DNA from: a virus
Reading direction: 5' to 3' (one strand)
DNA: 59,749 bases
Virus genome (UHGV): UHGV-0185078
Part shown: one piece after another, positions 1 through 47,424 of the stretch
Layout of the letters: each line of letters starts with the position of its first letter
Position numbering within the stretch: the stretch's first letter is position 1
Position numbers and translations under genes: made by a program
The notes under the pieces: model-generated
Database searches by the model: none
Told to the model about the DNA's origin: nothing
What the model saw: the letters and a program-made list of their open reading frames with translations, nothing else

Positions 1-71
1 GTATGGTTCGTATTAACGTAGCGAAGCTTCCAATGTTGATACGTCAAGCTATAGCAGAAGGAAAACTATAA
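1..71 (+). CDS. 3' end of neck/tail-completion protein (HK97 gp10-like) continuing from 59413 across the window junction
   Basis: If window ends are joined, the frame opened at 59413 continues ...SQQAPN|GMVRINVAKLPMLIRQAIAEGKL to TAA at 69-71, which overlaps ATG 71 (TAATG). Confidence 0.45.
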   Translation, partial: MVRINVAKLPMLIRQAIAEGKL

Positions 72-520: not shown

Positions 521-534
521 GAGAGGATCTAAAT

Positions 535-1458: not shown

Positions 1459-1467
1459 GGATAAGAA

Positions 1468-5389: not shown

Positions 5390-5392
5390 TAT

Positions 5393-9900: not shown

Positions 9901-10092
9901 ACATCAATAACAAGGAGGATTGAGCGAGCTGCCAATGGGCCTGCTATGGATGTAACCATACCTTTAGCAGTGAAAGGAAAGACAGCGTCGAGGGTAACAA
10001 TAAGCGTTAAGGAGGAATATACGAATGTCTATGGGAGTTACTTGCGTCCGTCTGTAATATTAATGACTCGCGGAACTGGTAGTTGGTCGTAA
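6970..10092 (+). CDS. tail tip / host specificity protein (lambda I+J-like)
   Basis: 1040 aa from ATG 6970 (GGAGGG RBS 4 nt upstream); hydrophobic Ala/Gly-rich N-terminus, large central body; position after M/L/K-like genes. Confidence 0.75.
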   Translation: MPPAIIGAAIALGASAAAAASIISATTALVIGIAATAAGALLTKTPNMNFDAYKGQQERKQVLRAATASRSVVYGTTVASGLLAFAEEEAGEQDEGEWMHLVVVLASHKLEGIETIWLGDDGIDWFGENATWEFHNDRQTVDPFMLRHCPSWKEDMIGKGIAWLRLSLKFDAEKFPSGLPNVKVLKKGRRVYDPRSGQTVFSDNAALVILDYFRTYLKRKDENINWDQFKEAANICDEFVTNADNTTERRYRINGEFEVDEAPAKILDAMLEACGGELTYIGGKHGLLVGAYYGPATMTLDESCIAGDIKIIPETSYKERTNTITGTFVDPKQTYAEADFPPVVVKEWVEKDGGEITQDMDFRFVTSEYQAQRLANIILRRKRVGRTIEVPCNMKGYKFRPGMYVNVTISNIGMKNVEMRVTKWSFDPKGGINLVLRQDFLEMWDDAIGKPMERPDLVDLPSGAIAQPQNLQYQALQISDVVQGVLTWSNIGQVAYNRVAVRQGGTTVWTAQVPGQNVRVTGLLRGAYTAHVQAVAYSGAVSPEAYLEFNIQAPPPPTSIEVQQGYFAISLIPKSADIANVSTQYDFWTSGETRLSSVSTDIVEREATRKGMGTTWTSEGLKNGHTYYWYVRTINAFGSSAFVEVAALCFTTATDLMPQIDSEFKKTETYKELTAEITGVKDGVTQLSQTVVDTEKRLSQSVSNVQQSVITLDGVVQDQGVTINEQGQLIDAQGRLIDTQGKTIQQVSATVQETSKAVVDLEGNVNAQWGAKVQVDSKGQKYVAGIQLGMEGSGGAVQSYFMVSANNFAIYNPTNSVAELAFAVKNGQVFMKAAFIENGTIDSAKISNQIQSTNYASNSAGWMINKNGSAQFNNVTVRGTVYANNGSFTGTVNATSGKFKGTVEATSFVGDVANMCVIAESAIPNTQTTSSRTWTKTFKDSSGSTLSKDFVLLLSYSLTAYTSNQASRIIVTANIGGTSITRRIERAANGPAMDVTIPLAVKGKTASRVTISVKEEYTNVYGSYLRPSVILMTRGTGSWS

Positions 10093-10098
10093 TAAATA

Positions 10099-10127
10099 AT
10101 TAACCCCTCGTTTGAGGGGTTAATTTT
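10099..10127. terminator. bidirectional rho-independent terminator between J-like gene and lipoprotein gene
   Basis: Perfect inverted repeat attaacccctc-gttt-gaggggttaat flanked by A/T runs on both sides. Confidence 0.7.
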
Positions 10128-10360
10128 CAATAATCAATTACACAGTTTGAAGGTGAACCAATTCGTCGGTATTCATGATCAATCTCATGGCACCATTGTC
10201 CAGTCATTGGAAGCTTTTCGGTATCATAAATTAAAGAACCGTTACCATCACGATCTAACGGTTTTGGAATTACGCCGGAATTAGGTTTACCAGTATTTAA
10301 ACCGTTACCACATGCAGTGAGGGATAAAGTTAATGCCAGCATAATTAAAGCGCGTTTCAT
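10127..10360 (-). CDS. small lipoprotein, candidate superinfection-exclusion protein (Cor/Llp-like)
   Basis: 77 aa, MKRALIMLALTLSLTAC signal peptide with lipobox L-T-A-C; GGAG RBS; antisense to flanking tail genes and bracketed by terminator and intergenic promoter region. Confidence 0.6.
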   Translation of the reverse strand: MKRALIMLALTLSLTACGNGLNTGKPNSGVIPKPLDRDGNGSLIYDTEKLPMTGQWCHEIDHEYRRIGSPSNCVIDY

Positions 10361-10442
10361 TGGGACTCCTTTGTGTTGTTGTCAAGGTTCAATTCTAATA
10401 TACTTGTTGTGTTGAGTAAGTCAAATAAATGTGGGAGATATT

Positions 10443-13400
10443 ATGGCAACTCGTTTACGTGGTACTTTAGTTGATGGTTTAAATAAACCAATTGTCAACG
10501 CTACAGTTGCGCTTTTAGCGAAAGGGAATAGCTTATTGGTATTGTCCGGTAGTGAAGCTATCTTTAAAACAAGCGCAACCGGAACATATGATATTACAGT
10601 CCAAACAGGCTATTACAAGGTTATTATCGGTCCGCAAGGTAGCGAGCCTTATAAAGCTGGTGAAATTGCTATTTACGCGGACAGTAAAGAAGGTACGCTG
10701 AATAACTATTTAACTTCCTGGGCACCGGAAGAGTTAACTCCGGAAGTTATTGCACAGGTTAAAGATTTAGTTTCACAAGCTGAGACAGCTAAGAATGCTT
10801 CTGCTGCATCTGCAACTAAATCCGAGCAAGAACGCGTTAAAGCAGAAGCTGCGGCACAGAATGCTGTAAACACCGCTAACGGTATGAAGGCATCTATTGG
10901 TCTGACTACCGCGCCTAGACATGTTGCAGATATTACAGTCAATCCGTCATCATTCTTGGGTTTTATACGGATTTTACGGTCTAGTACAGTAGGTTATCCG
11001 GATATCGCGTCCTCAGAAAACGCATTGGCCGGTTTTGTCTCCGCTATGGATGGAACCCCTGGATTTATAGGTGTTTTTGTTGGAGACATGACCGGGACTA
11101 TATATAGCTATAGATGGATTAAGGACGTTGGTGTTACATGGTGGAAGCAAGTTAACTATTCTACTGTCAACAGATATACCCAGCTAAACGCAGAAACTAA
11201 TTTTACAAACCAATTAGGCAATGCAAAACTCCTCATAGATAATAATAAAGTTTGGGGAGCATATGATAATGAAAATAAACGCTTCATACCTCTAGCAATA
11301 GCTCAAGGTGGTACAGGAGGAACTACTGACGCGGATGCTCGTACAAACTTAAGACTTGGTTCTAACGATACACCTCAATTCAGAAACCTTAATCTTGTTA
11401 CAGTAGCAGACTCCGCACAAGCGCCTTCCGGCATTGTGAGCGGTTATTTAAATAATAGCTCTGGAGTTCAAAGATGCCGCTACCGCATATATTCTGAAAT
11501 AAGAGGTGACAATAAAGCGTGGTTAACCTTACACCTTCAATCAGACACAGCAACAAATAAATATGCTGGTCTAAGCGTTGATGGTAATTTTCAAATCAAT
11601 GGAAATTTTATTGGTAATGCTTTGCAGTTGTCAGACGCTCCAAATTCCAGGATTAATCTACAGTTAGATCGTTTTTATCAAAGTGCTAACGAAACGGTTA
11701 TTTATACTCCGTCTCGTCAAGCATATATGACAATTTCTAATAACAAGACTTGGGGTGCTTATGACGCGGAAGCTCAAAACTTCATCCCTTTACCTATTAA
11801 TAGGGGAGGGACTGGTGCTTTAACAATATCCGACGCTAAGACTAATCTTCAAATTCCGTCTGTAGGTGGGGGTGATTGGTTAACTTATAACGCTCCTCCT
11901 GGCGTGGAAGCTGGAAAGTATTATCCAGTTATCATCGATATGGCATACAGCTCTTTATATGCTTCTGGTGCTTTTATAGATATAAAGACACGTTCTGCCG
12001 CTGGTGACGATCCAATGAACTGTTGCACTTTTAACGGATTTATTAGATGTGGTGGTTGGAGCGACCGAAAAGACGGCGGTTATGGTTACTTTAACAACTA
12101 TGCAAGAAATGAAATTGCTATGAAATGTATTCTTTCTTCATCTAAAGATGCGGAAAGATACGTTGCAATATATGTTGAAGGTCGTGGTTTCCCTCTTCAA
12201 TTGCGTGTCCCTGCATTCTGTGAAGTAACAGTACCAACATCAAACTTTACTTATAAAAATACAACCTATGCGTGGGGTACAGCTAACCCTGCAACGGATT
12301 CTGTAGCTATAAACACCTTATTTGATTTTTCATTAAACCGCGTTGGTTTTTACCAGGCCACGACAGAAGGTAATTATTATATCGGAAATGGGGAACGTAT
12401 TGTTTTATCTAACGGAATGTCTGTGGGTGAAGAGTTAAGTCTAACCACACCTAAAGTGTCTTTCAGTGGAACCATTGCGGCTGGTAACGGTGTCATTGCA
12501 GATGGAACATCTGTATCCAACGCTACTTTTTATAGCCGTTATCGTGTTGGTGACGTAATATATGGCAGCGAGTTTCGCGCAAGTGAAAATGCTGGTCAAA
12601 TTATAGTCCGCGATCCAACGGGTGGGACTGCGCATCAATTCTTTAACTTCAATCTCAACGGGACATTCAGCGCCCCCGCTGGTTTGCTATCTTCTACTGG
12701 AGTAGATTGGAACGGTCAGATTAATACCGTCAATAAATTCTATGGGATTGCTGGACAAGTTAACACACCAGAAAACAATGTGGTTTATGGTGGTATACAT
12801 GTTGGATTCAGCGGCAACTATGCTTTCCAGATATGCGGAAGGAAAGGTAAATCCTTCTTCCGCACATTTGAAGCAGGAGTAGAAGGACAATGGCAACAAT
12901 TAGTAACTAAAGGGAACTACGGAGTTGGTCTAATTGGAACTTTTAAACCGGAAGATGGTTCAAGTGGTTTTTACACTGATTCCGATGGGGCAAATACTTG
13001 GTCGCCCGCTAACGGAGGGGGTTTTCAATCTTCGTATACTCAGCAGCGAATATTCCAATTTTGGATGACATCAAGCTCGCAGGGGTTTATTCGTTTTAAC
13101 AATAGCGGTAACGCGCAAGCGTCTAAGACAGATAGACCTTGGACAACGCTTCAAGCTGCTGGTACATCTGATATTAACTTCAAACGTGTTCACGGTGAAA
13201 TGGACACAGATGTTGCGTTAGATAATATTAGCAAGCTTGAATTTGTTTATTTCAACTACTTGTCCGACGGTCCGGAGCGTGAAATCCGTAGGGGTATTAT
13301 TGCTCAACAGGCCCAGGAAGTTGATCCTGAATATGTACATAGTGCTGAAACATCCGGAAAAATGACTTTGGATTCTAACCCATTGTTATTGGATGCATTA

Positions 13401-13529
13401 GCTGCAATACAATCCCTCAAGAAAAAGGATCAAGATAATAAAGACCGCATTAGCAAGCTTGAAACTGAAGTTGAGGAACTCAAAAAGCTAGTTGCTACGC
13501 TTGTTAATAAAGATCAACCATTACCATAA
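10443..13529 (+). CDS. tail fiber protein with C-terminal intramolecular chaperone (peptidase S74-like) domain
   Basis: ATG 10443 after GGGAGA RBS; repeated GGTG..A.TNL fiber motifs; C-terminus SDINFKRV...GIIAQQAQEVDPEYV...LLLDALAAIQSLKK matches the endosialidase-chaperone pattern. Confidence 0.8.
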   Translation: MATRLRGTLVDGLNKPIVNATVALLAKGNSLLVLSGSEAIFKTSATGTYDITVQTGYYKVIIGPQGSEPYKAGEIAIYADSKEGTLNNYLTSWAPEELTPEVIAQVKDLVSQAETAKNASAASATKSEQERVKAEAAAQNAVNTANGMKASIGLTTAPRHVADITVNPSSFLGFIRILRSSTVGYPDIASSENALAGFVSAMDGTPGFIGVFVGDMTGTIYSYRWIKDVGVTWWKQVNYSTVNRYTQLNAETNFTNQLGNAKLLIDNNKVWGAYDNENKRFIPLAIAQGGTGGTTDADARTNLRLGSNDTPQFRNLNLVTVADSAQAPSGIVSGYLNNSSGVQRCRYRIYSEIRGDNKAWLTLHLQSDTATNKYAGLSVDGNFQINGNFIGNALQLSDAPNSRINLQLDRFYQSANETVIYTPSRQAYMTISNNKTWGAYDAEAQNFIPLPINRGGTGALTISDAKTNLQIPSVGGGDWLTYNAPPGVEAGKYYPVIIDMAYSSLYASGAFIDIKTRSAAGDDPMNCCTFNGFIRCGGWSDRKDGGYGYFNNYARNEIAMKCILSSSKDAERYVAIYVEGRGFPLQLRVPAFCEVTVPTSNFTYKNTTYAWGTANPATDSVAINTLFDFSLNRVGFYQATTEGNYYIGNGERIVLSNGMSVGEELSLTTPKVSFSGTIAAGNGVIADGTSVSNATFYSRYRVGDVIYGSEFRASENAGQIIVRDPTGGTAHQFFNFNLNGTFSAPAGLLSSTGVDWNGQINTVNKFYGIAGQVNTPENNVVYGGIHVGFSGNYAFQICGRKGKSFFRTFEAGVEGQWQQLVTKGNYGVGLIGTFKPEDGSSGFYTDSDGANTWSPANGGGFQSSYTQQRIFQFWMTSSSQGFIRFNNSGNAQASKTDRPWTTLQAAGTSDINFKRVHGEMDTDVALDNISKLEFVYFNYLSDGPEREIRRGIIAQQAQEVDPEYVHSAETSGKMTLDSNPLLLDALAAIQSLKKKDQDNKDRISKLETEVEELKKLVATLVNKDQPLP

Positions 13530-13546
13530 CCACATCTAACTTCAAC

Positions 13547-13571
13547 AGCGCGTCTTCGGGCGCGCTTTTTA
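13547..13571 (+). terminator. rho-independent terminator after tail fiber gene
   Basis: agcgcgtcttcgggcgcgct hairpin followed by ttttt. Confidence 0.7.
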
Positions 13572-13700
13572 TTGGCTGTCAATCCTGATTTACAAAATCT
13601 TTACATATGGATCATTGTAAAAAGCATGTTAAGGGGTATGCTTTACTTCGTAACCAGTTGGTTACATCCGCTTAACAAATCCATATATGGAGATTTTCCT

Positions 13701-14408
13701 ATGTCTGACATGACTCTTTTACCTACTAATCTCGGTGGCGACGGTTTCGGCGGTGAAGCTGGTGCGGCTGGTATCGGTGGCGCGATCGGTGGCTTAATTG
13801 GTTCCTGGATCGGTAATGGTTGGGGTGGCAATGGTGGTTGGGGTGGTCGCGGTAACTTCGCTGGCCCGGTGGAAGTGCAAGCTTCTGTTGACACCAACGC
13901 AATTCTGCAAGCTATCAACAACGGTACTCTTCAGACCATTCAGGGGCAGAACGGTACTAACCTGACTGTTGAGCGCTCCGCTGCTTCTACCTATAACGGC
14001 ATCACTCAGCAGAACACTCAGAACATGCTGGCTTCCGTTCAGGGCTTTGCTGGTCTGAACACGCAAATTCAGGGTGGCACCAGCCAAGTGCTCGCGGCTC
14101 TGTGTAGCAACGAAGCGGCTAACATTACCCGTTCTTTCCAGGCCCAGTTAGCAGCCGAGAAGTGTTGCTGCGAAACCAACCTGAACATCGAGCGTCAAGC
14201 TGAAGCTACCCGTGCGCTAATCCGTGACCAGCACGCACAGGCGCAAGCAGTTCTGATCTGTGACCTGAAATCTCAGTTGCAGGAAGCTCGCTTTGCAAAC
14301 TCTCAGTTGGCACAAACGGCTGGTCTTACTTGTAAGATCAATCAGGTTGAGCAGTTAGTTAACTTTAAACTGCCAACTCCTCCAACTCCTCCGACTGGCT
14401 GCTGCTAA
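13701..14408 (+). CDS. glycine-zipper / Cys-cluster protein of unknown function (possible fiber-associated adhesin)
   Basis: ATG 13701 after GGAGA RBS; N-terminal GGDGFGGEAGAAGIGGAIGGLIGSWIGNGWGGNGGWGG, Gln/Asn/Thr-rich middle, CCC motif and C-terminal PTPPTPPTGCC. Confidence 0.55.
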   Translation: MSDMTLLPTNLGGDGFGGEAGAAGIGGAIGGLIGSWIGNGWGGNGGWGGRGNFAGPVEVQASVDTNAILQAINNGTLQTIQGQNGTNLTVERSAASTYNGITQQNTQNMLASVQGFAGLNTQIQGGTSQVLAALCSNEAANITRSFQAQLAAEKCCCETNLNIERQAEATRALIRDQHAQAQAVLICDLKSQLQEARFANSQLAQTAGLTCKINQVEQLVNFKLPTPPTPPTGCC

Positions 14409-14429
14409 TCGTTGAAGTGTGGTTAAACT

Positions 14430-14464
14430 AAAGCGCCTTTCGCTCCTCCGCTTGGGGCGCTTTT
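14430..14464 (+). terminator. candidate terminator after Gly-rich protein gene
   Basis: aagcgcc...ggcgctt inverted repeat (long loop) followed by ttt. Confidence 0.35.
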
Positions 14465-14479
14465 AACAGAGGTACTATC

Positions 14480-14848
14480 ATGAGCCACATTAAAATCGCA
14501 ACGATGGGAATGCCACGGGTCAAATTGCCTAAGGTTGCTTTACCTCGCATTAGCGTAGGCGAGCACCACCATGAACATGAGAAAGAGGAATATAAACATG
14601 CTCACTCTTATGCTCGAGATCATGAACATATGGCAGCTATGTCAAATGTTCTTGACCGGATGGAAGAACCTCCGCATACGTGGGCGGCGTACCACGACAA
14701 GCCCGGCGGTATGATGTCCATCGTTGAAATGGAATACCGCGAATTAATGGAGTGTAAGAAAGAAGGCGACCGCGCAGGGATCATGAAAGAGTTGACTGAT
14801 CTTGCCGCAGCTTGTACTTGCGCTCTTCAAAAAATGAAAGATATGTAA
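14480..14848 (+). CDS. His-rich protein, possible MazG-like nucleotide pyrophosphohydrolase domain
   Basis: 122 aa; HHHEHEKEEYKHAHSYARDHEH stretch; C-terminal EYRELMEC...KELTDLAAA resembles ExxE...ExxD of all-alpha NTP pyrophosphatases. Confidence 0.35.
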   Translation: MSHIKIATMGMPRVKLPKVALPRISVGEHHHEHEKEEYKHAHSYARDHEHMAAMSNVLDRMEEPPHTWAAYHDKPGGMMSIVEMEYRELMECKKEGDRAGIMKELTDLAAACTCALQKMKDM

Positions 14849-14863
14849 GAATAGGAAGCCGAC

Positions 14864-15394
14864 ATGCAAAACGTAAACGCAGGAATGGGCGTAACCCAGT
14901 TCAACGGGATGAAACCGAAAAACTCCATCAACATGGGCGGTGTTGATTGGACGTTACGTCGGGACGCTACCGATTCAACTACCATGTTCCCACACCAGAA
15001 GGTGAGCTGGCTTAATGCAGGCTGTGAACCTATGGGTGATGGAAGGGTTCATTACTGTTGGATTATGGGGGTGATACCGCCTACGCCGGGCACTATCGAA
15101 CGACCCGTGAATGTGATGTATGTCGGCTTCCACCAGTTTAAAATCACGATCGCTCCAAACTCCATTAGTCAGTCTGATCTTGATCGTATGCACGTTTACG
15201 TCAGCGATGGTACAGACTTTGCAGGGGATTTTATTAATAAGTTTCTTGGTATGCAACCTGAGCAGCCTGTAGAAGCACGCGAGCATATTAGCCCGTGGCC
15301 ACCCATGATTGATCAGGAAGTGCTGCAACCAAAGACCGCTCAAACGGTCCCTCAGAAACCGGAGCAGAAGGTGAAACCAAATGACGAAGAATGA
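14864..15394 (+). CDS. hypothetical protein
   Basis: 176 aa ORF with AGGAAG RBS. Confidence 0.45.
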   Translation: MQNVNAGMGVTQFNGMKPKNSINMGGVDWTLRRDATDSTTMFPHQKVSWLNAGCEPMGDGRVHYCWIMGVIPPTPGTIERPVNVMYVGFHQFKITIAPNSISQSDLDRMHVYVSDGTDFAGDFINKFLGMQPEQPVEAREHISPWPPMIDQEVLQPKTAQTVPQKPEQKVKPNDEE

Positions 15395-15665
15395 AGGTAT
15401 TGATAAAGTTGTTGAAGGACTTTCTATTCGTGCTCATGTTATAGCCGATGAAGGTCATGATCAACTTACTATTATGAAATCCGCATTCAGCGATTTCAAG
15501 TCGCTTGGAAACTTAAGCGGGTTAATGACAGTAGTGTCGACCGGAAAATTAACGCAGCAGCAAATCAGTCTAGCTCAACGTATTGCTGTTAAAGTTATTG
15601 CGGTACTTGGGATGATTGAAGCTGAAAAGCCCAGTTCCAAGCAGGATAACGAAAGCGACCTTTAA
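15381..15665 (+). CDS. hypothetical protein
   Basis: 94 aa ORF, GGTGA RBS, overlaps upstream gene end. Confidence 0.45.
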   Translation: MTKNEGIDKVVEGLSIRAHVIADEGHDQLTIMKSAFSDFKSLGNLSGLMTVVSTGKLTQQQISLAQRIAVKVIAVLGMIEAEKPSSKQDNESDL

Positions 15666-20441: not shown

Positions 20442-20668
20442 TAGCGATCCTCGATTGCTCTAATTGTGGTTAAATCTAATTCACAGGTTGGAGGTAATCC
20501 ATAAAGCCCCATTTGTCTTCCTTGCGCATTAAACCATGTACCTGACGGATCCTGCCACTGCTTAGGTGTCTTGTGGAGAAATACTACTCTGTTTTCACCG
20601 TAATAATTAATTCTTACACCTGTGTGAGTATATTTACGTTTACCTTTTGGTCTTCTTAAGTTAGCCAT
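20441..20668 (-). CDS. hypothetical basic protein
   Basis: 75 aa ORF, start and stop overlap neighbours. Confidence 0.4.
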   Translation of the reverse strand: MANLRRPKGKRKYTHTGVRINYYGENRVVFLHKTPKQWQDPSGTWFNAQGRQMGLYGLPPTCELDLTTIRAIEDR

Positions 20669-21588
20669 CAGAACAACTCCATTACACGATCACGGAATGT
20701 GCCATCATGGGTAGCGTTAATGTTTGCAGCAATTACACCATACGCCCATAAGTTGAAGGCAGCACGTGATTCATAGATTGTTGATAAACGTTCGTAAGTG
20801 AAACCGTTTTGCTCAAGGTATTTAAGGACAGCGTCTTGTTCAATTTCAGTTAATGTTGAAACATGCTTACCAAAATGATGGCGGTCCGGTGACTTATCTG
20901 ATACGCGCATTGGCCCCCACGGAGGAGTAACCACACTTCCAAACGCTGCCGCTTGAATCCAGGAGGATGAGTCACAACTATACCACGGATAACGTTCCAT
21001 AATGGTTGTTGACGTAATACCAAACGCATGAAGTTTAATCTTAGCACGTCCGCTACCATCGCAAATATATTTGTCCCACATGCGGTCAAGCCAAGTCTTA
21101 AGCGTGTCCGTTGAACGTCCTACCATGCCCCCGATGGTGATATATTCGTAGTTCTTCATGTAGTATTCAAGATAGCGGAAGTCCTCCCCAAAGTGAAAGC
21201 ACGGTAACGGTTTAGCACCGCGTGCTTCCATTTCAAGCTGGTTACGGTAGGTCTGCAACGGATCACCGATACCATCGAGCACTGACGCCATTACAGCACC
21301 ATCTTCTACCCGCAAAATGTCTTTATTGCGCTTGATGTACTCGCAGTATTCAACAATATCAATGTGAGCACCCAAAGAGTGAGCGGAGAATGCACCAGAG
21401 TCGAGAAACACTTTAGCCCCATCCGCACGCATTTGATCAACATACTTCTGACGCCCAACGTAGTGGTACGATTCCAAAATATGGGGCAGGTTGCGAGTGA
21501 TATTTTTCTCATGCTCGGATAGCTTTTCGTAACGCTGCTGTCCAGGCATATATCCGTTAGTATACACAGCCGCCATGAATACATTCAT
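20668..21588 (-). CDS. dpdA: DpdA, tRNA-guanine transglycosylase-like DNA 7-deazaguanine transglycosylase
   Basis: 306 aa; TGT-like VFLDSGAFS motif; clustered with folE, queD, queC, queE. Confidence 0.75.
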   Translation of the reverse strand: MNVFMAAVYTNGYMPGQQRYEKLSEHEKNITRNLPHILESYHYVGRQKYVDQMRADGAKVFLDSGAFSAHSLGAHIDIVEYCEYIKRNKDILRVEDGAVMASVLDGIGDPLQTYRNQLEMEARGAKPLPCFHFGEDFRYLEYYMKNYEYITIGGMVGRSTDTLKTWLDRMWDKYICDGSGRAKIKLHAFGITSTTIMERYPWYSCDSSSWIQAAAFGSVVTPPWGPMRVSDKSPDRHHFGKHVSTLTEIEQDAVLKYLEQNGFTYERLSTIYESRAAFNLWAYGVIAANINATHDGTFRDRVMELF

Positions 21589-36629: not shown

Positions 36630-37107
36630 GATTTGCAAATTCCTTATGTAATTCCAATCTTTTAGTTCTAACCCAAGCTTTAGCAGCTTGTAAACCTTCA
36701 GGTGTAAGTTCAAAATATTTTGATACCAAAACACCTTTTACATGTAAGTTTGCATAATAGACTTGAATGCCATTATGTTTTGTAATAGTTACGCACTTAA
36801 CACCAGTCTTTGAGTCTTTACGAATAACCATATTATAATTGTTCTGTGAACGATCAGCCAGTCTAAGATTTTCTATTCTGTTATCATCTCGAACTCCGTT
36901 AATATGATCAATTATCTTGTCTTCAGGAATATCACCATTGAAGTATTGCCATATTAACCTGTGAGCGAAATAAAATCTCTTATCAATTTTACCTTGAATG
37001 TAACCATCCTGACGTTTTGTACCAAATGGTCTTTTATTATAACCGTTTTTATTTCTTTGAAATAATTTGCCATCTATATAAATAAAGCGATCGTTTACAT
37101 TGATCAT
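36595..37107 (-). CDS. HNH homing endonuclease
   Basis: HRLIWQYFNGDIPEDKIIDHINGVRDDNRIENLRL HNH motif; start taken at ATG 37107. Confidence 0.75.
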   Translation of the reverse strand: MINVNDRFIYIDGKLFQRNKNGYNKRPFGTKRQDGYIQGKIDKRFYFAHRLIWQYFNGDIPEDKIIDHINGVRDDNRIENLRLADRSQNNYNMVIRKDSKTGVKCVTITKHNGIQVYYANLHVKGVLVSKYFELTPEGLQAAKAWVRTKRLELHKEFANHGQHTAKRSES

Positions 37108-37153
37108 GTTTACCTCCTTTATATGTATTTTAATATGAAGTAAAATCAATCTC

Positions 37154-37185
37154 AATAAAAAAGCGCAACGTTTTCACGCTGCGCT
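37154..37185 (-). terminator. rho-independent terminator closing the structured non-coding island
   Basis: Minus strand agcgcagcg-tgaaaa-cgttgcgct hairpin followed by tttttt. Confidence 0.6.
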
Positions 37186-37491
37186 TAGTTTAAATAAGGT
37201 ACTTGACTATTCAGCTTCCCTTATTTCCGGTAAATTGTACAGCCTCGCCAAAGGCTGGTGACGGTTTGGTACATCTGGCGCCGTCGCGTTAAACATCGTT
37301 TACATCGTTCAGTAAGTTGCGGGTTTACCCTGTCCGCTCCAGGAAGCCCAGCGAAAGTAGTTGCTGTAAGGAGGTACAGCTACCGCTTTCAAGGGCTTGA
37401 GTTAAGCATCGTTCACTAAGTTAATGTTGTTAAATTGTTAAACCTCGTTAACTGTGGTTATCTTAAAGGATGCAGTCTTGAATGGCAAGCT
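37186..37491 (-). other. GC-rich structured non-coding island (candidate ncRNA or cis element) between the HNH genes
   Basis: No ORF on either strand; multiple short perfect stems (cagcct-cgccaa-aggctg, gctgta-aggagg-tacagc, gggt-tt-accc); closed by terminator 37154-37185 on the minus strand. Confidence 0.4.
37294..37423. repeat. direct repeats catcgttca(g/c)taagtt within the structured island
   Basis: Copies at 37303-37318 and 37408-37423 (15/16 identical) plus partial copy catcgtt at 37294-37300. Confidence 0.5.
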
Positions 37492-41232: not shown

Positions 41233-41448
41233 TTACTGAGAACTAACCATTGCACAACCGATAGCAGCAAATAAGTGCTTCTTAGTCTCATTGATCACTT
41301 TCTCTGCATCCAGATAGCTCTCATAATGTCCAAGGTAAACAATAGTCCCTACAACCATAATATAAGCTGTGCGGTAATGCATGTAATGACCAATGAACCA
41401 TCCCTGCTCCCGAAGCTTATTTTGTCCAACTTCACTAAGTACCATCAT
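41233..41448 (-). CDS. hypothetical small protein
   Basis: 71 aa ORF with one hydrophobic segment. Confidence 0.35.
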   Translation of the reverse strand: MMVLSEVGQNKLREQGWFIGHYMHYRTAYIMVVGTIVYLGHYESYLDAEKVINETKKHLFAAIGCAMVSSQ

Positions 41449-41648
41449 GACCTCCGACGCTTATCGCCTTGCATCTTTTCCAGGGCGGGTACTGCTAAGG
41501 AACGTTTGTAGATGTACTGGTTAGCAATTCTAATAGCGCCCGGGATGCTGTCACGTATGCGCGACATCTTAAACTTAGATATACCGTAACGGTCTTCAAT
41601 TTCCGCCGCCGTTATGTAGTTCAAATCAAATTCCGATTCGTGATCCAT
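41445..41648 (-). CDS. small DNA-binding protein (helix-turn-helix-like)
   Basis: Start set to ATG 41648 (GGAGG RBS 6 nt upstream); ITAAEIEDRYGISKFKMSRIRDS resembles an HTH. Confidence 0.4.
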   Translation of the reverse strand: MDHESEFDLNYITAAEIEDRYGISKFKMSRIRDSIPGAIRIANQYIYKRSLAVPALEKMQGDKRRRS

Positions 41649-41673
41649 AATACCCTCCGTTACAACCGTCCAC

Positions 41674-41702
41674 ACAATACACAGTAAAGTCTTACTTTGC
41701 AA
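41674..41702 (-). promoter_or_regulatory. candidate sigma70-like promoter upstream of HTH gene, with palindrome in the spacer
   Basis: Minus strand TTGCAA-17-TATTGT; spacer contains agtaagactttact palindrome. Confidence 0.35.
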
Positions 41703-41713
41703 CTATTTTTGCA

Positions 41714-42442
41714 TTATTGCGGAGTTGTGATAATATGGTTACCAACTTCTAACATAACGTCCTGTGGCTCCCTTCCCTGTCTTAAGCTAATGAGCCAATT
41801 ATCAATATTGGGAAGAATATTTTTAGCCTGCTCAGAATCCCTGTATAGTGCAAGGTCTACCCATTGAGCCCCAAGCTTCACACGTATAGCGGTAGCGGTT
41901 TCGTAATGGTGCAGGGAACAGGTAGGCCAGCGACCGCGATTATCCCAATCCTGGATATCGCCGCTCCGGCGCATCCTGTACCAACGATGTGTCAATTTAT
42001 CCGCTTCCTTATCTGTCAGAGGATCCCCTTTAAGCAAAGCTTGGCGCTGTATCCAGGCCTTAAGTTCGGCGTTCTCCTTGCGCCCTGTTTTACCCTTATC
42101 CACTTTTACCTTCAGTGCTTCTTCATATGGGTCGTTACCCTTGCCCATGTGGTAATTGAATTTGCCCGTATAGCTGCGAAGCTCTTTGGCGTCCATCTCA
42201 TGCCCCAGCTTATCGCTAACCCATGCAAGGAAAGCCGCCCGCTCTGCATCCAGCTTACCTGCTTTTTGTCTTACCGCTTTTTTAACTGGTTGCTCCACAT
42301 CTTCGTTGAAGTAATCCTCCACCATAGCAAGCGCCTGAGCCTTAGTGGGCGCGCCCCGTAACCGCGAGCACGCTTGCACGACCCAGGCGGCAAAGCACAA
42401 ATCCTTAACCACAGTTTTAGATGTAATAGTTTCTTCGCTCAT
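41714..42442 (-). CDS. hypothetical protein, first gene downstream of the iteron region (candidate replication initiator or regulator)
   Basis: 242 aa; AGGAGG RBS; transcribed from a promoter that overlaps an iteron. Confidence 0.5.
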   Translation of the reverse strand: MSEETITSKTVVKDLCFAAWVVQACSRLRGAPTKAQALAMVEDYFNEDVEQPVKKAVRQKAGKLDAERAAFLAWVSDKLGHEMDAKELRSYTGKFNYHMGKGNDPYEEALKVKVDKGKTGRKENAELKAWIQRQALLKGDPLTDKEADKLTHRWYRMRRSGDIQDWDNRGRWPTCSLHHYETATAIRVKLGAQWVDLALYRDSEQAKNILPNIDNWLISLRQGREPQDVMLEVGNHIITTPQ

Positions 42443-42463
42443 AAATCCTCCTAGTGAACTGGT

Positions 42464-42740
42464 AATGCCACTATAAAACAGCTATTAGCTATTTGCAAGA
42501 ATTGTTTTAATATAGTGCTTAGTGGCGTACATAGTGGGCAAAACGTGTATAGTACGTCGTTACTGGCTTTGTAAAAGTTTGCCACTATAAACCACTATCC
42601 CACTATCCACTAATTTTTTATTTTTACACAGAGCAAAGTTTATAAGTTTACGGTTTCCCCCTTATTACCCCGTTTTCAAACAAAGAATTAGTAGTAGTAG
42701 TGAAAACGTGTAAATGCCACTATCACTACTATACTATTAA
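42464..42740. repeat. iteron cluster, repeated (G)CCACTAT motif in both orientations
   Basis: gccactataaa (42467), inverted atagtgc/tagtggc/atagtggg (42512-42538), tandem gccactataaa-ccactatcc-cactatcc-actaa (42581-42613), gccactatcactactatactatt (42716-42738). Confidence 0.55.
42470..42498 (-). promoter_or_regulatory. candidate sigma70-like promoter for gene 41714-42442, overlapping an iteron
   Basis: Minus strand TTGCAA-17-TATAGT, then AGGAGG RBS and ATG; the -10 is the reverse complement of the CCACTAT iteron. Confidence 0.45.
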
Positions 42741-42769
42741 TTATCTGAAAAAAGTTGGGAGTATACCCC

Positions 42770-42935
42770 TATAAACTTATAAACTTTCAGTCAACTAACT
42801 AAAATAAACCAAATTAAACTAATATTAATAATAACTATAAATATATATAAAATAAGGATTTATTATTATTGTATATAGTACCTATTGGTATTATGTGATG
42901 AGTTTATAGTCACTAAATAAACTCTATAAATTTTA
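42770..42935. other. strongly AT-rich tract with ATAAAC repeats (candidate DNA unwinding element)
   Basis: About 165 bp of mostly A/T with repeated ataaac/ataaat motifs immediately beside the iteron cluster. Confidence 0.5.
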
Positions 42936-43110
42936 ATAAACCTGAACGGATGCAGATCAAAAACGAGAAGTCAAGTGCTTTTGAGGGAAATTTATTGAAC
43001 TATTGTGATCGAAAGGTATATCAAGCTATAATGCGCTTAATCGCGGAGTATTGGAGGAGGACTTTATTGCGCGGTTAACCGGACCAGTTGGAGGGCTGAC
43101 CCGGTTGGAG

Positions 43111-43440
43111 TTAAAGTTCGGTGATTTGGTAAAGGCTAATAGTGTCGTTGGACATTACGCCGGACAGGATGCCGTTCGTCCAGTTTATGCAGTAAGGCGA
43201 ATGTAACGTGTTATGCATGAAGTAAAGGTCGTTATTGATAATGCTTCGCATCGGCTGTACTGCAATAAGGTTGTCTTCTAAAACGTGCTTTACATAGTCG
43301 TCATTAGGAATAGTAAAGCTGTCTTTAAACTTGCCGAACATTGGCGTTAATTTTACAAGGCGACCTTTTTGTTCAACCTTGTATACGTTCTTGCGGAAGA
43401 ACTGACCGTGTTCAATATAGCTGCGTACGAAACTAGTCAT
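43111..43440 (-). CDS. hypothetical protein
   Basis: 109 aa ORF. Confidence 0.4.
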   Translation of the reverse strand: MTSFVRSYIEHGQFFRKNVYKVEQKGRLVKLTPMFGKFKDSFTIPNDDYVKHVLEDNLIAVQPMRSIINNDLYFMHNTLHSPYCINWTNGILSGVMSNDTISLYQITEL

Positions 43441-43551
43441 TTATTCGTCCTCCATCAAAGCGCGTTTCATGTCACCGTTGCATACAACGGCAATTCCCAT
43501 TTCATAAAGTGCTTCAAGTTGCTCGATAGTAATTGTTTCATAGTAAGACAT
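43441..43551 (-). CDS. small hypothetical protein
   Basis: 36 aa from ATG 43551 (GAGGA RBS); longer track ORF starts at a non-ATG codon and overlaps the upstream gene. Confidence 0.3.
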   Translation of the reverse strand: MSYYETITIEQLEALYEMGIAVVCNGDMKRALMEDE

Positions 43552-43604
43552 GTTTGTATCCTCAGGTTGTTGAGGGCTCCCGCAGAAGCCGATGTGGTTA
43601 TCGA

Positions 43605-44219
43605 TTAAGCGTCCAGGCCGTTGTACTTGCGCCATGCGTAGAACTGGATTGCTACTGTTGTGCCGTTGTAAGAAGGCATTGCAGCTTTCATTTCTTTCAG
43701 CTCAGGTGTACGTCCCAGCTCAGCGAGCAGCTTGTCACCCATTGCCCAAACTTCAGCAGTTTTACCTTTCAGCGGCTTGCGAGCGCCATTTTTAAAATCA
43801 CAGCGAGCAGCTTTTGCATCTTGTTTTGGCGCGGCAGCTTTTGGCTCTTCAATTTTGATTTCAGAAACCTGCGTGGCAGCTTTTGCGTGTTTCATATCTT
43901 TCTCTTCCTCCTGCTCCAGAGCTTCGAGGCAGCTTTTGACGATTTCCGGATTTACCATCGGGCGCAGTACCGAGACGCTAGCAGCAGGCGCGGCGGTCGG
44001 TGCCGGGACTTTCTGCCCCGGCTGTTGCGCTTTTTTATGGTCGCGCAGTACCTGAAGCACTTCCTTCTCGACGATATAAAAACCGATTTCGTCCTGATGG
44101 ATAAGCTGTTCGTGTGCATCGCGTGCAACCTGGCCCCAGCGGGTCTTAAGGGCACGGCGTGCATTCGTTTTCATGGTGTAACGCATTTTGTCCTGTTCGC
44201 GGTGAGTTACTTTAGACAT
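43605..44219 (-). CDS. Lys/Ala/Glu-rich protein with conserved C-terminal domain (paralog of 26299-27102)
   Basis: 204 aa; C-terminal VWAMGDKLLAELGRTPELKEMKAAM...FYAWRKYNG aligns with the C-terminus of ORF 26299-27102. Confidence 0.45.
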   Translation of the reverse strand: MSKVTHREQDKMRYTMKTNARRALKTRWGQVARDAHEQLIHQDEIGFYIVEKEVLQVLRDHKKAQQPGQKVPAPTAAPAASVSVLRPMVNPEIVKSCLEALEQEEEKDMKHAKAATQVSEIKIEEPKAAAPKQDAKAARCDFKNGARKPLKGKTAEVWAMGDKLLAELGRTPELKEMKAAMPSYNGTTVAIQFYAWRKYNGLDA

Positions 44220-44308
44220 GGTATGTTCCTTCTGTTAGATTGTTTAGTTGTCTTGCTAAGTTGACTTATTATTGCCCACCGTGTTGAAATGGGCAAGATA
44301 TAAATCAC

Positions 44309-44458
44309 TTAATTTGTAATTTTATCTACACAGTAGTCAGCATCAAATTCCGCCGGGCTAATACCCAATTGGGCAATTGCAGCCGCTTCAGCTTCAACGA
44401 AATTGTTGGCTTCAATGAACGCGACGATAACACCGTATTTATTAATGACTTCGTACAT
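44309..44458 (-). CDS. small hypothetical protein (first leftward gene)
   Basis: 49 aa ORF MYEVINKYGVIVAFIEANNFVEAEAAAIAQLGISPAEFDADYCVDKITN, translated by hand; below the track size cutoff. Confidence 0.3.
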   Translation of the reverse strand: MYEVINKYGVIVAFIEANNFVEAEAAAIAQLGISPAEFDADYCVDKITN

Positions 44459-44795
44459 GGTCTAACCCTTAATGTGGTTAAGCAGTATTGCTTTGTTGAA
44501 GTAATAATAGCCTTGCATCGTGATATTGAATAGGCCAAAAGTGCTATTTTAGATCACTATTACATCTACAGCTTTGCAGTAACGCTACGCTAAAAATGCA
44601 AAGTTTTACGTTTGCTAAACATGTAGATTTTGTGCTCATCCCTCTTAGTACGTATAACGTCTATTATGTTAAATAGCTAAGTTATTGATTTATGGTAAAT
44701 CTTGTATCAATTTGGACGTTATAGGCGTCTAACGTATTGATTTATAAGGGTGTAAAATTTTGCTGTTTGTAGCGCATAAAAAGGAACAAACCGGG

Positions 44796-44824
44796 ATGTC
44801 ATAAAATGACATGTGTTTTGTCAT
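44796..44824. promoter_or_regulatory. operator-like overlapping inverted repeats in the divergent control region
   Basis: atgtcat-aaa-atgacat perfect palindrome overlapping atgaca-N7-tgtcat; three TGTCAT-type half sites just upstream of the putative rightward promoter. Confidence 0.4.
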
Positions 44825-44844
44825 TATAAATGCCACGTTTGGCC

Positions 44845-44873
44845 TAGACATAGATCAAGTCATGGCGTACTAT
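44845..44873 (+). promoter_or_regulatory. candidate rightward early promoter
   Basis: TAGACA-17-TACTAT about 45 nt upstream of the first rightward ORF and its GGAGG RBS. Confidence 0.35.
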
Positions 44874-44916
44874 ATAGTCAAAGGAAAGATAAAGCCGAAA
44901 GGCGGAGGAAAATAAA

Positions 44917-45066
44917 ATGAGAAAGTTTAAAGTCATGTACTACGGTAACTACATTGGAGACGTTAAAGCTCCGAATCGTGCAGATGCAGAAGGTTTCGTT
45001 CGCGCAGAGATGCAGATTGGAATCGCCGATTTTGCAGCCATTATCGAACTGGTAGAGGTATTTTAA
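44917..45066 (+). CDS. small hypothetical early protein
   Basis: 49 aa ORF, GGAGG RBS 9 nt upstream of ATG, directly downstream of the putative rightward promoter; hand-translated. Confidence 0.4.
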   Translation: MRKFKVMYYGNYIGDVKAPNRADAEGFVRAEMQIGIADFAAIIELVEVF

Positions 45067-45067
45067 T

Positions 45068-45208
45068 ATGTCACGCAAATACACGCTTACACGCGCACAG
45101 CACGCGTTATTAATTGCAGCAATGCACGCAGAATATGCAGTTCATGGCTGGCATAGTGCCATGATGCGCGGTAAAAGCATATATGCGGACATGCGCTCGC
45201 AAGGATAA
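45068..45208 (+). CDS. small hypothetical early protein
   Basis: 46 aa ORF starting 1 nt after the previous stop; hand-translated. Confidence 0.3.
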   Translation: MSRKYTLTRAQHALLIAAMHAEYAVHGWHSAMMRGKSIYADMRSQG

Positions 45209-45244
45209 CGCACACAGCGCCACGCTAGCGAGCTAATGTACATA

Positions 45245-45264
45245 GGTAATGGTAATGCATTACC
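45245..45264. repeat. ggtaat direct repeat followed by 14-bp perfect palindrome ggtaatgcattacc
   Basis: Read directly from the sequence in the 45209-45774 non-coding region. Confidence 0.5.
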
Positions 45265-45475
45265 AACACACAACGAGCGCGCTGTACCCCACAAAGCGGC
45301 GCTAATTTCAATACTCACAGGCTGTACGTTAACGCGTACGGCCTGCTCTTCTATATGCACGCCATGTATATAGCCAGCTCACGATGCACATCAATATAAT
45401 TACGAATGAAATGGATTCGTTTTGGAAGAATAACGATTCTTACCGTCGCAGACCGGTCCGATGAGCCAACTCATA

Positions 45476-45600
45476 GACCCCACCTAGGATCATCAGGGTA
45501 CTAATAATCACCCAAGGGCGCCTTATCCATCCTGATAGTAAGTGCTTGTCTAAATCTCACCCATCACATAGCCTATCCACCTACATCCATGACCCCACCT
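45476..45600. repeat. direct repeats gaccccacct (45476-45485 and 45591-45600) with tatccac-like motifs between
   Basis: Two 10-bp identical copies 115 bp apart; intervening ccatcc / ctatccacc motifs. Confidence 0.45.
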
Positions 45601-45774
45601 ACCTTCTTTTTGAATATATTGCGCTCATCCTTTCTAAATATATGGATTTTGGTAGTAAATTCTAAGTCGTCAACGTATAATTCGTCTTGTAGCTGCTCCA
45701 TAGCTACCATCTTTAAGCGGATGCAACCAATTTCTATCAATTCACACCTGTTTTTAGAGCATCAAGGAGGTATT

Positions 45775-46026
45775 ATGTGCGACTCCAGTGCAAGCGCTAC
45801 ACCCAGCACCTCCAGCAATGTGGTTACAGAGGTAAATGCAATGCGATTAGGTCCATATCGCGGCTATTATGGTCGTGCTGCATGGAATGACGCTACTCAA
45901 CGTTTTGAAGGCTGGATTATCTGCCCGGAACGTGTTAAATTTCACTCCGTAAAAGAGAAAAATATCGTTCTTAATTTTCAAAAATGTGTCACTAAATATG
46001 TAGAGGAGCAAGAAGAATGCGTGTAG
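45775..46026 (+). CDS. hypothetical protein
   Basis: 83 aa from ATG 45775 with AGGAGG RBS. Confidence 0.45.
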   Translation: MCDSSASATPSTSSNVVTEVNAMRLGPYRGYYGRAAWNDATQRFEGWIICPERVKFHSVKEKNIVLNFQKCVTKYVEEQEECV

Positions 46027-46307
46027 AAGAGATTGTTGAAGGTAAAGAGTATCGTTTACTGACCGATATTGGCGGTGTTGGGTATACTCCGGATGGTGCA
46101 GCTTGTTTTAACGTCCTTCCGCAAGCTGCTATCGTGACAGTTAACAAGGTTGTTACAGATTTATACAGCGTTCATGACGGCAACTGGCCACATGCAGTTA
46201 TTGTCACCTTCGGTAAAGATGGGTATGTGGATCTTGACGGTGAAGATGACACTTACGAAGTTGCTTATACAGGTCTTGTAAGCCCCAATTTCCTGGAAGA
46301 AGTATAA
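46017..46307 (+). CDS. hypothetical protein
   Basis: 96 aa, GAGGAG RBS, start overlaps upstream stop. Confidence 0.45.
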   Translation: MRVEEIVEGKEYRLLTDIGGVGYTPDGAACFNVLPQAAIVTVNKVVTDLYSVHDGNWPHAVIVTFGKDGYVDLDGEDDTYEVAYTGLVSPNFLEEV

Positions 46308-46358
46308 TTATCATTCTATAATGGGCTCTACGGAGCCCTTAATTATCTGGAGGTTGTT

Positions 46359-46661
46359 ATGCTGTATTTAGGAATGGACGAAACTGGACACGCAATTCCT
46401 TCTGTCAACAAGAAGACGCAAGTATTTACAGACTATTACGGGTCTGCTATCCCTGTAGAGGCTTGGGCTAACTTTATCGCTGTAGATGCAGACGGTAAAG
46501 TTCATTGTTATGACGCCAAACCTTCTTGCTATGAATCTGGTAAGCAATGGATGCTTGGCGTATACGGTTTGCATGTTCGCTACTGCGGCGAAGTTGACAT
46601 TGAAGGTGTGGACTGGCGCGATACGCTAATGGAAATTAAAGAATATAGGCTTAACCAATGA
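46359..46661 (+). CDS. hypothetical protein
   Basis: 100 aa, GGAGG RBS. Confidence 0.45.
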   Translation: MLYLGMDETGHAIPSVNKKTQVFTDYYGSAIPVEAWANFIAVDADGKVHCYDAKPSCYESGKQWMLGVYGLHVRYCGEVDIEGVDWRDTLMEIKEYRLNQ

Positions 46662-46882
46662 AAATATTCATGATACTAGGCGTTATAATTGCCGCTTTCG
46701 TTGTATTTGCAATTGTAGACTCTAAAGAAATGGAGCGGCAAAACTGCCAACGTACTGGTAACAGCCGGGATGATATCATTTGGCAATATATTTATGATGC
46801 AAAAGGTAATGTTATGTCAATGTATCCTCAAGTCATTACTGAGTATGAATATAAATGTGATGACCGTAACAGGTGGAGATAA
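46658..46882 (+). CDS. small membrane protein
   Basis: 74 aa, N-terminal hydrophobic helix. Confidence 0.45.
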   Translation: MKIFMILGVIIAAFVVFAIVDSKEMERQNCQRTGNSRDDIIWQYIYDAKGNVMSMYPQVITEYEYKCDDRNRWR

Positions 46883-46884
46883 TA

Positions 46885-47424
46885 ATGAGCTGTCAAAAAT
46901 GTAACGGAACGGGAATGGTTGATAGTGGTGGAGTTCAACCGTGGGGTGAGTCTATTCTGGTGGAGTGTGATTGTTTATATCGTGATCGCGACGCTTGGGA
47001 ACTGGATCAAGCTGGAGGTTATTACTCCCGTCATGTTATGGCAATGACATCCGAAGGTTTGCACAGCAAAGGTGATATTGCTGCGGAGCTGGGCTATCGT
47101 GATATGCGGATTGACCAGTTAGAAGCAGAATGGCGTGCTCAGGAAGAACGTGCCGAAAATGCTGAAACTAACCTTGTCGACATGCGTGCTGCTGAGCACG
47201 CTCTATCCGATTCTTATATTCGTTTGCGTCAAATTGTTGGTGCAATGAATCCGCCGGGTGTGACCAGCGAAGAGGTGTGGGCGCATACCGAGAAGAAGGC
47301 TCAAGAGTTGCGTGATCGCTGCGAAGCTCTGGAAGCTGTAGCAAAGGACTTCCTGCGTCGTAACGCTAACGGTCCTTTGTTCTATCGTGATCTGTATAAC
47401 CGTTTTAAGGAGATTGTAAAATGA
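46885..47424 (+). CDS. zinc-ribbon protein (DnaJ-type CxxCxGxG motif) with coiled-coil C-terminus
   Basis: ATG 46885 after GGTGGAG RBS; N-terminal CQKCNGTGMV...CDC. Confidence 0.45.
   Translation: MSCQKCNGTGMVDSGGVQPWGESILVECDCLYRDRDAWELDQAGGYYSRHVMAMTSEGLHSKGDIAAELGYRDMRIDQLEAEWRAQEERAENAETNLVDMRAAEHALSDSYIRLRQIVGAMNPPGVTSEEVWAHTEKKAQELRDRCEALEAVAKDFLRRNANGPLFYRDLYNRFKEIVK

Follow-up and report, generated by a model that had tools for sequence, protein, structure and literature searches.

Which signals start transcription at the only place where the genes of the virus genome UHGV-0185078 part in opposite directions, and what part is played by a palindrome that lies there? The window (the whole stretch of DNA analyzed, 59,749 bases) is a complete Seuratvirus genome, equal in size to those of its relatives, and its source is a virulent Escherichia coli siphophage of the genus Seuratvirus, subfamily Queuovirinae. 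The map of open reading frames (ORFs) consists of a minus-strand block (15704-44458) and a plus-strand block that runs from 44917 to the end of the window and resumes at 71-15665. Hence, the 458 bp in between (44459-44916) are the sole point of gene divergence, a divergence already described in an earlier note on this DNA. In this gap, which is AT-rich (35% GC compared with 44% genome-wide), three TGTCA half-sites stand upstream of a predicted rightward promoter, P_R, in an arrangement that is kept among relatives. Whether this cluster is the putative binding site of a sequence-specific DNA-binding protein that would tune P_R from upstream is, in our judgment, an evenly balanced question.

Arrangement and conservation of the half-sites

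The perfect palindrome announced in the earlier note, ATGTCAT-AAA-ATGACAT, is found at 44796-44812, with two 7-nt arms and a 3-nt loop. The note also described an overlapping second repeat that brings the number of TGTCAT half-sites to three. This is true of the window, where a third TGTCAT (44819-44824) pairs with the middle arm to form an imperfect inverted repeat (TAAAATGACA / TGTCATTATA, 90%), while relatives keep only TGTCA in the third half-site and continue it as TGTCAG or TGTCAC. The distance to the promoter, given as about 25 bp, was roughly right: the actual gaps to the −35 hexamer are 20 bp from the third half-site and 32 bp from the palindrome. As a whole, the cluster (ATGTCAT-N4-TGACAT-N6/7-TGTCA) is located ~57-83 bp upstream of the predicted P_R start. 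Coordinates of all features are collected in Table 1.

When the region was compared by BLAST, the nearest relatives were SLUR76 and SLUR26 (98.5%), followed by VogelGryff, by SHIN8, by Seurat (86%), and by WildeMaa and SLUR75 (~77%). Two versions of P_R were distinguished. Type I, with three half-sites followed by CACGTTTGGCC, comprises seven sequences: the window, SLUR76, VogelGryff, SHIN8, Seurat, WildeMaa and SLUR75. SLUR26 is probably of type I as well, judging from its 98.5% BLAST match alone. In type II, an A/T-rich tract, cAAAATATTTTTATAAAAAG(A)TGCAAAAAGGTG, precedes an identical core promoter; nine sequences are of this type: CAjan, slur01, GottfriedDienst, SeppeHuegi, SLUR25, Dru_SM1, ECP2304, yong3 and SA126VB. 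In our own reading, the tract resembles an UP element.

Three type I lineages that have diverged from one another all carry the half-sites: the window group (ATGTCAT AAAA TGACAT GTGTTT TGTCA), Seurat (ATGTCAT TAAC TGACAT AAAATGT TGTCA), and WildeMaa with SLUR75 (ATGTCAT TTAC TGACAT AAAATGT TGTCA). Counted back from the first base of the −35 hexamer, the half-sites start at 48-49, 38-39 and 25-26 bp, and loops and flanks differ. In all type I genomes, the two cores of TGTCA-N5-TGACA start 10 bp apart, about one helical turn. In one MAFFT alignment, the half-sites are invariant at 18 of 18 positions and their neighbors at 13 of 47 (p = 4e-8). In the alternative alignment, obtained with default settings, the counts are 12 of 18 for the half-sites and 16 of 47 for the neighbors (p = 0.018); under it, the same layout would have been rebuilt after a 9-nt insertion or deletion. 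Under either alignment, the arrangement of the half-sites is maintained.

It is this conservation in relatives that raises the feature above chance. In the window, 50 perfect palindromes have 7-nt arms and a loop of 0-6 nt, and ATGTCAT is not enriched (7 copies, 8.8 expected). TGTCA-N5-TGACA occurs exactly once in the window and once per type I genome, and is absent from the type II genomes of CAjan and GottfriedDienst.

The predicted rightward promoter

The earlier note had proposed TAGACA-17-TACTAT as a promoter candidate for the rightward genes. The pattern is present, and phylogenetic footprinting backs the proposal strongly. By itself, it scores 9 of 12 consensus positions in a promoter scan whose genome-wide yield is at chance level (7 sites, 6.1 expected). 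Among 17 Seuratvirus sequences inspected, however, TAGACA-N17-TACTAT heads the rightward arm in 16, including the window and a Hafnia phage; the Salmonella phage STP-SP5 carries a diverged version. All 12 hexamer positions are identical across the 16 sequences, whereas 6 of the 17 spacer positions vary within type I, and the spacers of the two types are essentially unrelated apart from a GATC. Because the hexamers never vary while the spacer does, P_R is very likely a sigma-70 promoter, with a predicted transcription start near A44880. P_R precedes the first rightward start codon by 44 bp.

Other parts of P_R are also kept. In the upstream element, the stretch CACGTTTGGNC is identical in the seven type I sequences, N being C in six of them and G in VogelGryff. 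The beginning of the leader, ATAGTCAAAGGAAAG, is conserved in all type I sequences, and the leader contains a small GCC-GAAA-GGC hairpin (44894-44903) and a ribosome-binding site, GGAGG (44904-44908).

Three side observations concern P_R:

(i). GATC is kept in the spacer of both promoter types despite the unrelated remainder, and its G lies in a GA modification context (see below).

(ii). The stretch 44591-44628 reads as a degenerate version of the upstream and −35 portions of P_R (TAAAAATGCAAAGTTTTACGTTTGCTAAACATGTAGAT, compared with TATAAATGCCACGTTTGGCCTAGACATAGAT at P_R). No −10 hexamer lies at the right distance, and the stretch may be what is left of a duplication, or else a decoy.

(iii). 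In STP-SP5 (record ~872-930), a 5-5-5 palindrome, GATGC-ACAGA-GCATC, is found just upstream of AAAATAGCACAATTGGCC TAATCA. The arrangement looks like a diverged P_R with a third version of the upstream region, seen in a single record.

A putative related leftward promoter and the region between

On the opposite side of the gap, a putative leftward promoter, P_L (44504-44551), is proposed on the basis of its conservation and its resemblance to P_R, of which it would be a paralog; its predicted start is near 44497. The −35 hexamer of P_L, TATTCA, is below the threshold of the promoter scan and is separated by 17 nt from the −10 hexamer, which is invariant across 10 Seuratviruses while the spacer is variable. 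In the upstream element, the 10 sequences all agree at 12 of 18 positions; at the remaining positions, differences are confined to STP-SP5, to SA126VB or to three sequences with a T-to-G change. In the leader, the stretch CTTAACCACA is nearly invariant in the same number of Seuratviruses.

Matches to CACKTTTGGCCTANNCA without mismatch are found only at P_L and P_R, and the composite TTTGGCCTANNCA-N17-TAYTAT has only two genome sites with zero mismatches: P_L (minus strand) and P_R (plus strand). A 19-nt inverted repeat (I1) is explained by this shared composite pattern. In addition, each promoter is preceded by the motif GCAC(G/T)TTTGGCC. The gap is thus read as a pair of related, back-to-back promoters of sigma-70 type, predicted from sequence, with their −35 elements ~313 bp apart. 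P_L heads the arm for replication and DNA modification, and P_R heads small genes, lysis genes and structural genes.

A noncoding block of 90 bp (44464-44554) is 97-100% identical in most of 36 matching phage records. In more distant records identity is 80-85%, even where both flanks cease aligning. The block appears to correspond to P_L plus its leader, and its identity seems above what a promoter alone would need. Within it, the P_L upstream element ATAGCACTTTTGGCCTATT (44527-44551, minus strand) fits 12 of the 14 specified positions of the marbox of MarA, SoxS and Rob. The match overlaps the −35 hexamer, as in class II marbox promoters; as the marbox is degenerate, we take it as a lead only.

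Between the promoters, the integration host factor (IHF) consensus WATCAANNNNTTR finds two of its four genome matches. These two are not independent, because both lie in one 17-nt direct repeat (D2).

Table 1. Features of the divergent region and its surroundings in the window. Promoter positions and transcription starts are predictions.
Feature	Coordinates	Strand	Basis or remarks
First leftward gene, 49 aa	44309-44458	−	ORF list; no match in Pfam or PHROGs
Predicted leftward 5′ leader	44459-44497	−	Start ~44497, from the position of the P_L −10 hexamer
P_L −10 hexamer, TATTAT	44504-44509	−	5/6 consensus; invariant in 10 Seuratviruses, including Hafnia and Salmonella phages
P_L −35-like hexamer, TATTCA	44527-44532	−	3/6 consensus; TAATCA in STP-SP5
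P_L upstream element, AAAATAGCACTTTTGGCC	44533-44551	−	Counterpart of the P_R element; inverted repeat I1
IHF-consensus match, AATCAATAACTTA	44678-44690	−	Kept in 7/7 type I sequences
Second IHF-consensus match, AATCAATACGTTA	44730-44742	−	Intact only in the window's own subgroup
Half-site 1, ATGTCAT	44796-44802	+	Center ~−81 from the predicted P_R start; invariant in 7/7 type I sequences
Half-site 2, (A)TGACAT	44806-44812	+	Inverted relative to half-site 1; center ~−71
Half-site 3, (T)TGTCA(T)	44818-44824	+	Center ~−59; conserved part is TTGTCA only
P_R upstream element, TATAAATGCCACGTTTGGCC	44825-44844	+	Comparison of type I sequences
P_R −35 hexamer, TAGACA	44845-44850	+	5/6 consensus; identical in 16 Seuratvirus sequences
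GATC (Dam site) in the P_R spacer	44853-44856	+	In both promoter types, shifted 1 nt between them
P_R −10 hexamer, TACTAT, followed by ATA	44868-44873	+	4/6 consensus (A at 2, T at 6); identical in 16 sequences
Predicted P_R leader	44880-44916	+	Predicted start near A44880
First two rightward genes, 49 aa and 46 aa	44917-45208	+	ORF list, Pfam, PHROGs
12-bp GC-rich hairpin, possible P_R terminator	45318-45345	+	Fold −20.6 kcal/mol, z = −4.6
Promoter-like site, TAGCCA-18-TATAAT	45371-45400	+	Promoter scan

Neighboring genes and other observations

The DNA of the first leftward gene is common to phages CSP1 and CSP1C. Of the two first rightward proteins, the one of 46 aa matches phrog_37795, a PHROG with no assigned function. 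Downstream of these two genes, the GC-rich hairpin and the later promoter-like site suggest that the P_R transcript may be a short unit of ~470 nt; both features are inside a stretch of 569 bp (45209-45777) devoid of convincing ORFs. Another long stretch of this kind, of 757 bp, is found at 36735-37491. A third gap, 42443-43110, is ORF-free over 668 bp, with GC content down to 22% at 42700-43000, the most AT-rich stretch of the region profiled (42000-47000). This gap is a candidate unwinding region or origin.

Two observations were made in relatives. In WildeMaa (record ~1600-1872) and also in SLUR75, a GC-rich noncoding insert of ~270 nt stands between P_R and the first gene, in place of the 49-aa gene. 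The insert could be a structured leader RNA; an Rfam search of the WildeMaa insert gave no match. In type II relatives, up to four copies of (A/C)(T/G)ACCAGG(G/T)G are found in the gap (records of GottfriedDienst, ~480-640; Dru_SM1, ~440-600; CAjan, ~1700-1760), while slur01 has none. These repeats could be iterons or sites for another protein.

Search for a binding protein

The earlier note had remarked that no obvious repressor gene is nearby. The remark extends well beyond the vicinity: Pfam and PHROGs detected no DNA-binding regulator in the ten neighboring ORFs or among the 49 non-structural ORFs, and no helix-turn-helix family among the latter. A co-variation test was also carried out, in which every ORF of the window was compared with type I genomes (VogelGryff, WildeMaa and Seurat) and type II genomes (GottfriedDienst and CAjan). 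No ORF or allele of the window tracks the site across these three plus two genomes. WildeMaa bears the site but lacks the 49-aa first rightward gene, whereas GottfriedDienst has the gene (88% identity) and no site; the 46-aa gene of the window is the allele of type II phages. The window, Seurat and CAjan have primases that are 99-100% identical to one another and 77% identical to those of VogelGryff, WildeMaa and GottfriedDienst. As Seurat and CAjan share their primase but differ in the site, the primase does not track it either. Because no phage gene does, a binding protein would more likely be encoded by the host than by the phage. A BLAST search of 44770-44900 against E. coli genomes gave no match; the module is not visibly borrowed from the host.

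Pattern searches were extended to other collections. Three promoter or P_L patterns yielded 0, 0 and 1 matches in viral contigs, the single match being slur01, and one promoter pattern had no match in metagenome contigs. The triple half-site pattern had five matches in viral contigs, about the number expected by chance. Three of the five carry TATGTCA-N5-TGACATA plus a third TATGTCAT and represent two independent elements, as contigs L025 and L026 are near-identical. Arrays with the same orientation of arrows are found in IMG/VR contigs L023 (3085-3112) and L025 (1174-1202). Their contexts are unrelated and revealed no binding protein: one of the two contigs has 58% GC, and the other, a CTX-like filamentous phage, carries RstR-like and RstA-like genes.

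Comparison with known systems

The region is similar to the lambda PL/PR region with its operators, and to the Mu Pe/Pc region with its IHF site in between, in that one intergenic region fires both arms and in the presence of inverted-repeat protein sites and IHF-consensus sites between the promoters. Unlike in lambda and Mu, however, the phage is virulent and has no adjacent repressor gene; a single cluster is located upstream of the −35 hexamer instead of overlapping a promoter; and the promoters are paralogous and ~313 bp apart.

The position of the cluster bears on the suggestion, made in the earlier note, that the palindromes form a repressor or activator site. Invariant half-sites with variable spacers do fit a protein site. 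The idea of an operator that blocks the promoter is not supported: a classical repressor operator overlaps the −35 hexamer, the −10 hexamer or the start and usually comes in several copies, whereas here the cluster ends 20 bp upstream of the −35 hexamer, outside the polymerase footprint, and is present once per genome. There is also a likeness to class I activator sites and UP elements, as a site at ~−57 to −83 lies upstream of a usable core promoter, and the A/T tract of the sister phages occupies the equivalent place.

Individual boxes were also considered. The CRP site (TGTGA-N6-TCACA) differs in its bases and in the 5-5-5 spacing, and the FNR site is also unlike. The boxes of PhoB and of CusR/HprR share with the window site the TGTCAT half-site and A/T-rich spacers. 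A Pho box is made of adjacent direct CTGTCAT repeats with 11-bp spacing and replaces the −35 hexamer ~10 bp upstream of the −10 hexamer. Half-sites 1 and 3 of the window are 22 bp apart, the length of two 11-bp Pho units, but the middle unit is inverted, Seurat and WildeMaa have a distance of 23 bp instead, and a separate −35 hexamer is present. In the CusR box, TGACA and TGTCA are 4 nt apart, compared with 7-8 nt here. The Zur box (ATGTTAT-AWT-ATAACAT) shares the 7-3-7 layout of the window site, with a single base different in each arm. The differing base, the C of TGTCAT, is nonetheless the same in every lineage, the 7-3-7 symmetry is gone in Seurat and WildeMaa, and the position is wrong for a repressor that blocks a promoter. 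Altogether, none of the sites of PhoB, CusR/HprR, CRP, FNR, LexA, Zur, Fur, ArcA, GlrR, NifA, MatP, DnaA, Tus and Fis appears to fit in both bases and spacing; all these comparisons are leads.

How well the proposed role stands

The proposal that a DNA-binding protein tunes P_R can be made more concrete. A dimer would bind the inverted pair, in which one helical turn separates the cores, and an extra contact would come from the third half-site. The bound protein would not block P_R but might tune it from upstream, for instance via the alpha subunit of the polymerase or by bending the DNA. That the upstream position sets promoter strength is suggested by the sister phages, which place an A/T tract on the same core promoter.

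Several points weigh against this proposal. The palindrome alone is no better than chance, since at least one equivalent turns up in 23.5% of shuffled versions of the 458-bp gap. Only three independent lineages carry the half-sites, and two alignments are possible. The center of the palindrome, at ~−76 with the predicted start, is half a turn off the class I activator positions and out of phase with the classic CRP sites; the usual positions are −61.5, −72.5 and −82.5. We know of no E. coli factor that matches TGTCA-N5-TGACA, and no literature naming this sequence was found. Neither did we find literature on promoters, transcription or binding in Seuratviruses, and both starts are predictions. 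Phages that lack the half-sites manage, so any effect may be small. Lastly, Pfam and PHROGs can miss small new DNA-binding proteins, and a phage protein present in all Seuratviruses is invisible to the co-variation test.

Alternative explanations

The alternatives are taken in descending order of probability. The first is that the site is a true operator, bound by a phage-encoded regulator that shuts down or boosts P_R and is too novel for family searches. Most small early ORFs belong to no family; one of 85 aa (41445-41702) shows by eye a stretch resembling a helix-turn-helix, and another of 204 aa (43605-44219) has a weak match to a DNA-binding repeat of homing endonucleases (E = 0.044). The different palindrome of STP-SP5, at a similar position, is also reminiscent of the swaps of operator specificity known among phages. 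Against these observations stand the outcome of the co-variation test, including the distribution of the 49-aa gene and of the 46-aa allele, and the fact that there is one site only, clear of the promoter. We therefore regard a phage regulator as unlikely, albeit the best placed of the alternatives.

The second is that the palindrome has no function: it would have arisen by chance in an AT-rich spacer, and its conservation would stem from shared ancestry and from the choice of alignment. The shuffles and the genome-wide motif counts agree with this view, as do the small number of lineages that carry the site, the weaker enrichment in the default alignment and the existence of type II phages that do without it. 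It is harder to reconcile with 18 half-site bases identical in three lineages in which the 4-nt and 6/7-nt spacers and the flanks are near-random, and with a distance from the −35 hexamer that is constant within 1 bp under either alignment. On balance, we hold a chance origin to be rather unlikely.

A third alternative, which we find doubtful, is that the half-sites belong to a non-transcriptional DNA element, such as a replication origin between the promoters, with the palindrome as a landing site for an initiator or primase. A long, AT-rich gap with two IHF-consensus sites and several repeats, the ACCAGG copies of type II relatives in the same gap, and a primase gene 3 kb away would suit an origin. 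Iteron-type origins combine three or more direct repeats with an AT-rich unwinding region and a co-varying initiator; the half-sites here are mixed in orientation. Against an origin, the primase allele does not track the site, slur01 lacks ACCAGG repeats entirely, the fixed distance from the half-sites to the −35 hexamer points to a promoter-linked role, and a far more AT-rich stretch is available at 42700-43000.

DNA modification permits a more elaborate view. In CAjan, dPreQ0, a 7-deazaguanine, replaces G at GA and GGC motifs, in a manner that depends on the phage's own genes, and a CAjan mutant deleted for queC is available (PMC7544227). The DpdA ORF of the window (20668-21588) is 100% identical to that of CAjan. 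Every half-site reads TGACA on one strand and hence contains GA, and modification target motifs are also contained in the −35 hexamer TAGACA, in GGCC and in GATC. Proteins that read the half-sites on incoming DNA would thus meet modified bases; the relevance of this is speculation. One may imagine the TGTCA cluster as an interchangeable upstream module on a fixed core promoter, the type II A/T tract and the palindrome of the Salmonella phage being other such modules, and occupancy might differ between modified incoming DNA and freshly replicated DNA that is not yet modified, thus providing a timing switch. We consider this scheme a long shot.

A role of the palindrome in RNA, with a hairpin ending or processing a transcript that runs through the gap, is hardly credible: the first hairpin of the window is followed by GTGTTTTG, and a possible extended −10 element (TGCTATTTT, 44542-44550; our own reading) could start such a rightward transcript, but the folds are weak (−5.3 to −9.3 kcal/mol, z −0.4 to −2.3), different arms pair in different lineages with no compensatory changes, Seurat and WildeMaa have no U-tract, and Rfam has no match in the gap beyond a sub-threshold SprX (22 bits, cut-off 80). 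An intrinsic terminator or a structured RNA was rejected on the same grounds, that is, weak and inconsistent folds and the lack of an Rfam family.

Three further candidates were discarded. Half-sites read as promoter hexamers (TTGTCA as −35) have no −10 hexamer at a suitable distance. A small ORF across the palindrome is broken in frame by insertions and deletions among relatives. No GG-N10-GC element was seen by eye that would suit a sigma-54 promoter activated from upstream through the half-sites.

Implications for transcription in Seuratviruses

A conserved protein site upstream of a phage promoter would be an ordinary regulatory element, and the main value of this analysis is as a map for work on transcription. 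Nothing appears to have been published on transcription control in Seuratviruses, members of the Queuovirinae, the phages with 7-deazaguanine DNA; the analysis supplies testable coordinates for two predicted promoters that would start both gene arms. One of them, P_R, exists naturally in two or more versions, which are distinguished only by their upstream part. Because the publicly available BASEL collection includes both, with half-sites in Bas23 and Bas25 and the A/T tract in Bas21 and Bas24, experiments that swap or mutate these modules are straightforward to set up. Should the half-sites be bound by a host protein, the first transcription of the phage would be tied to a host signal.

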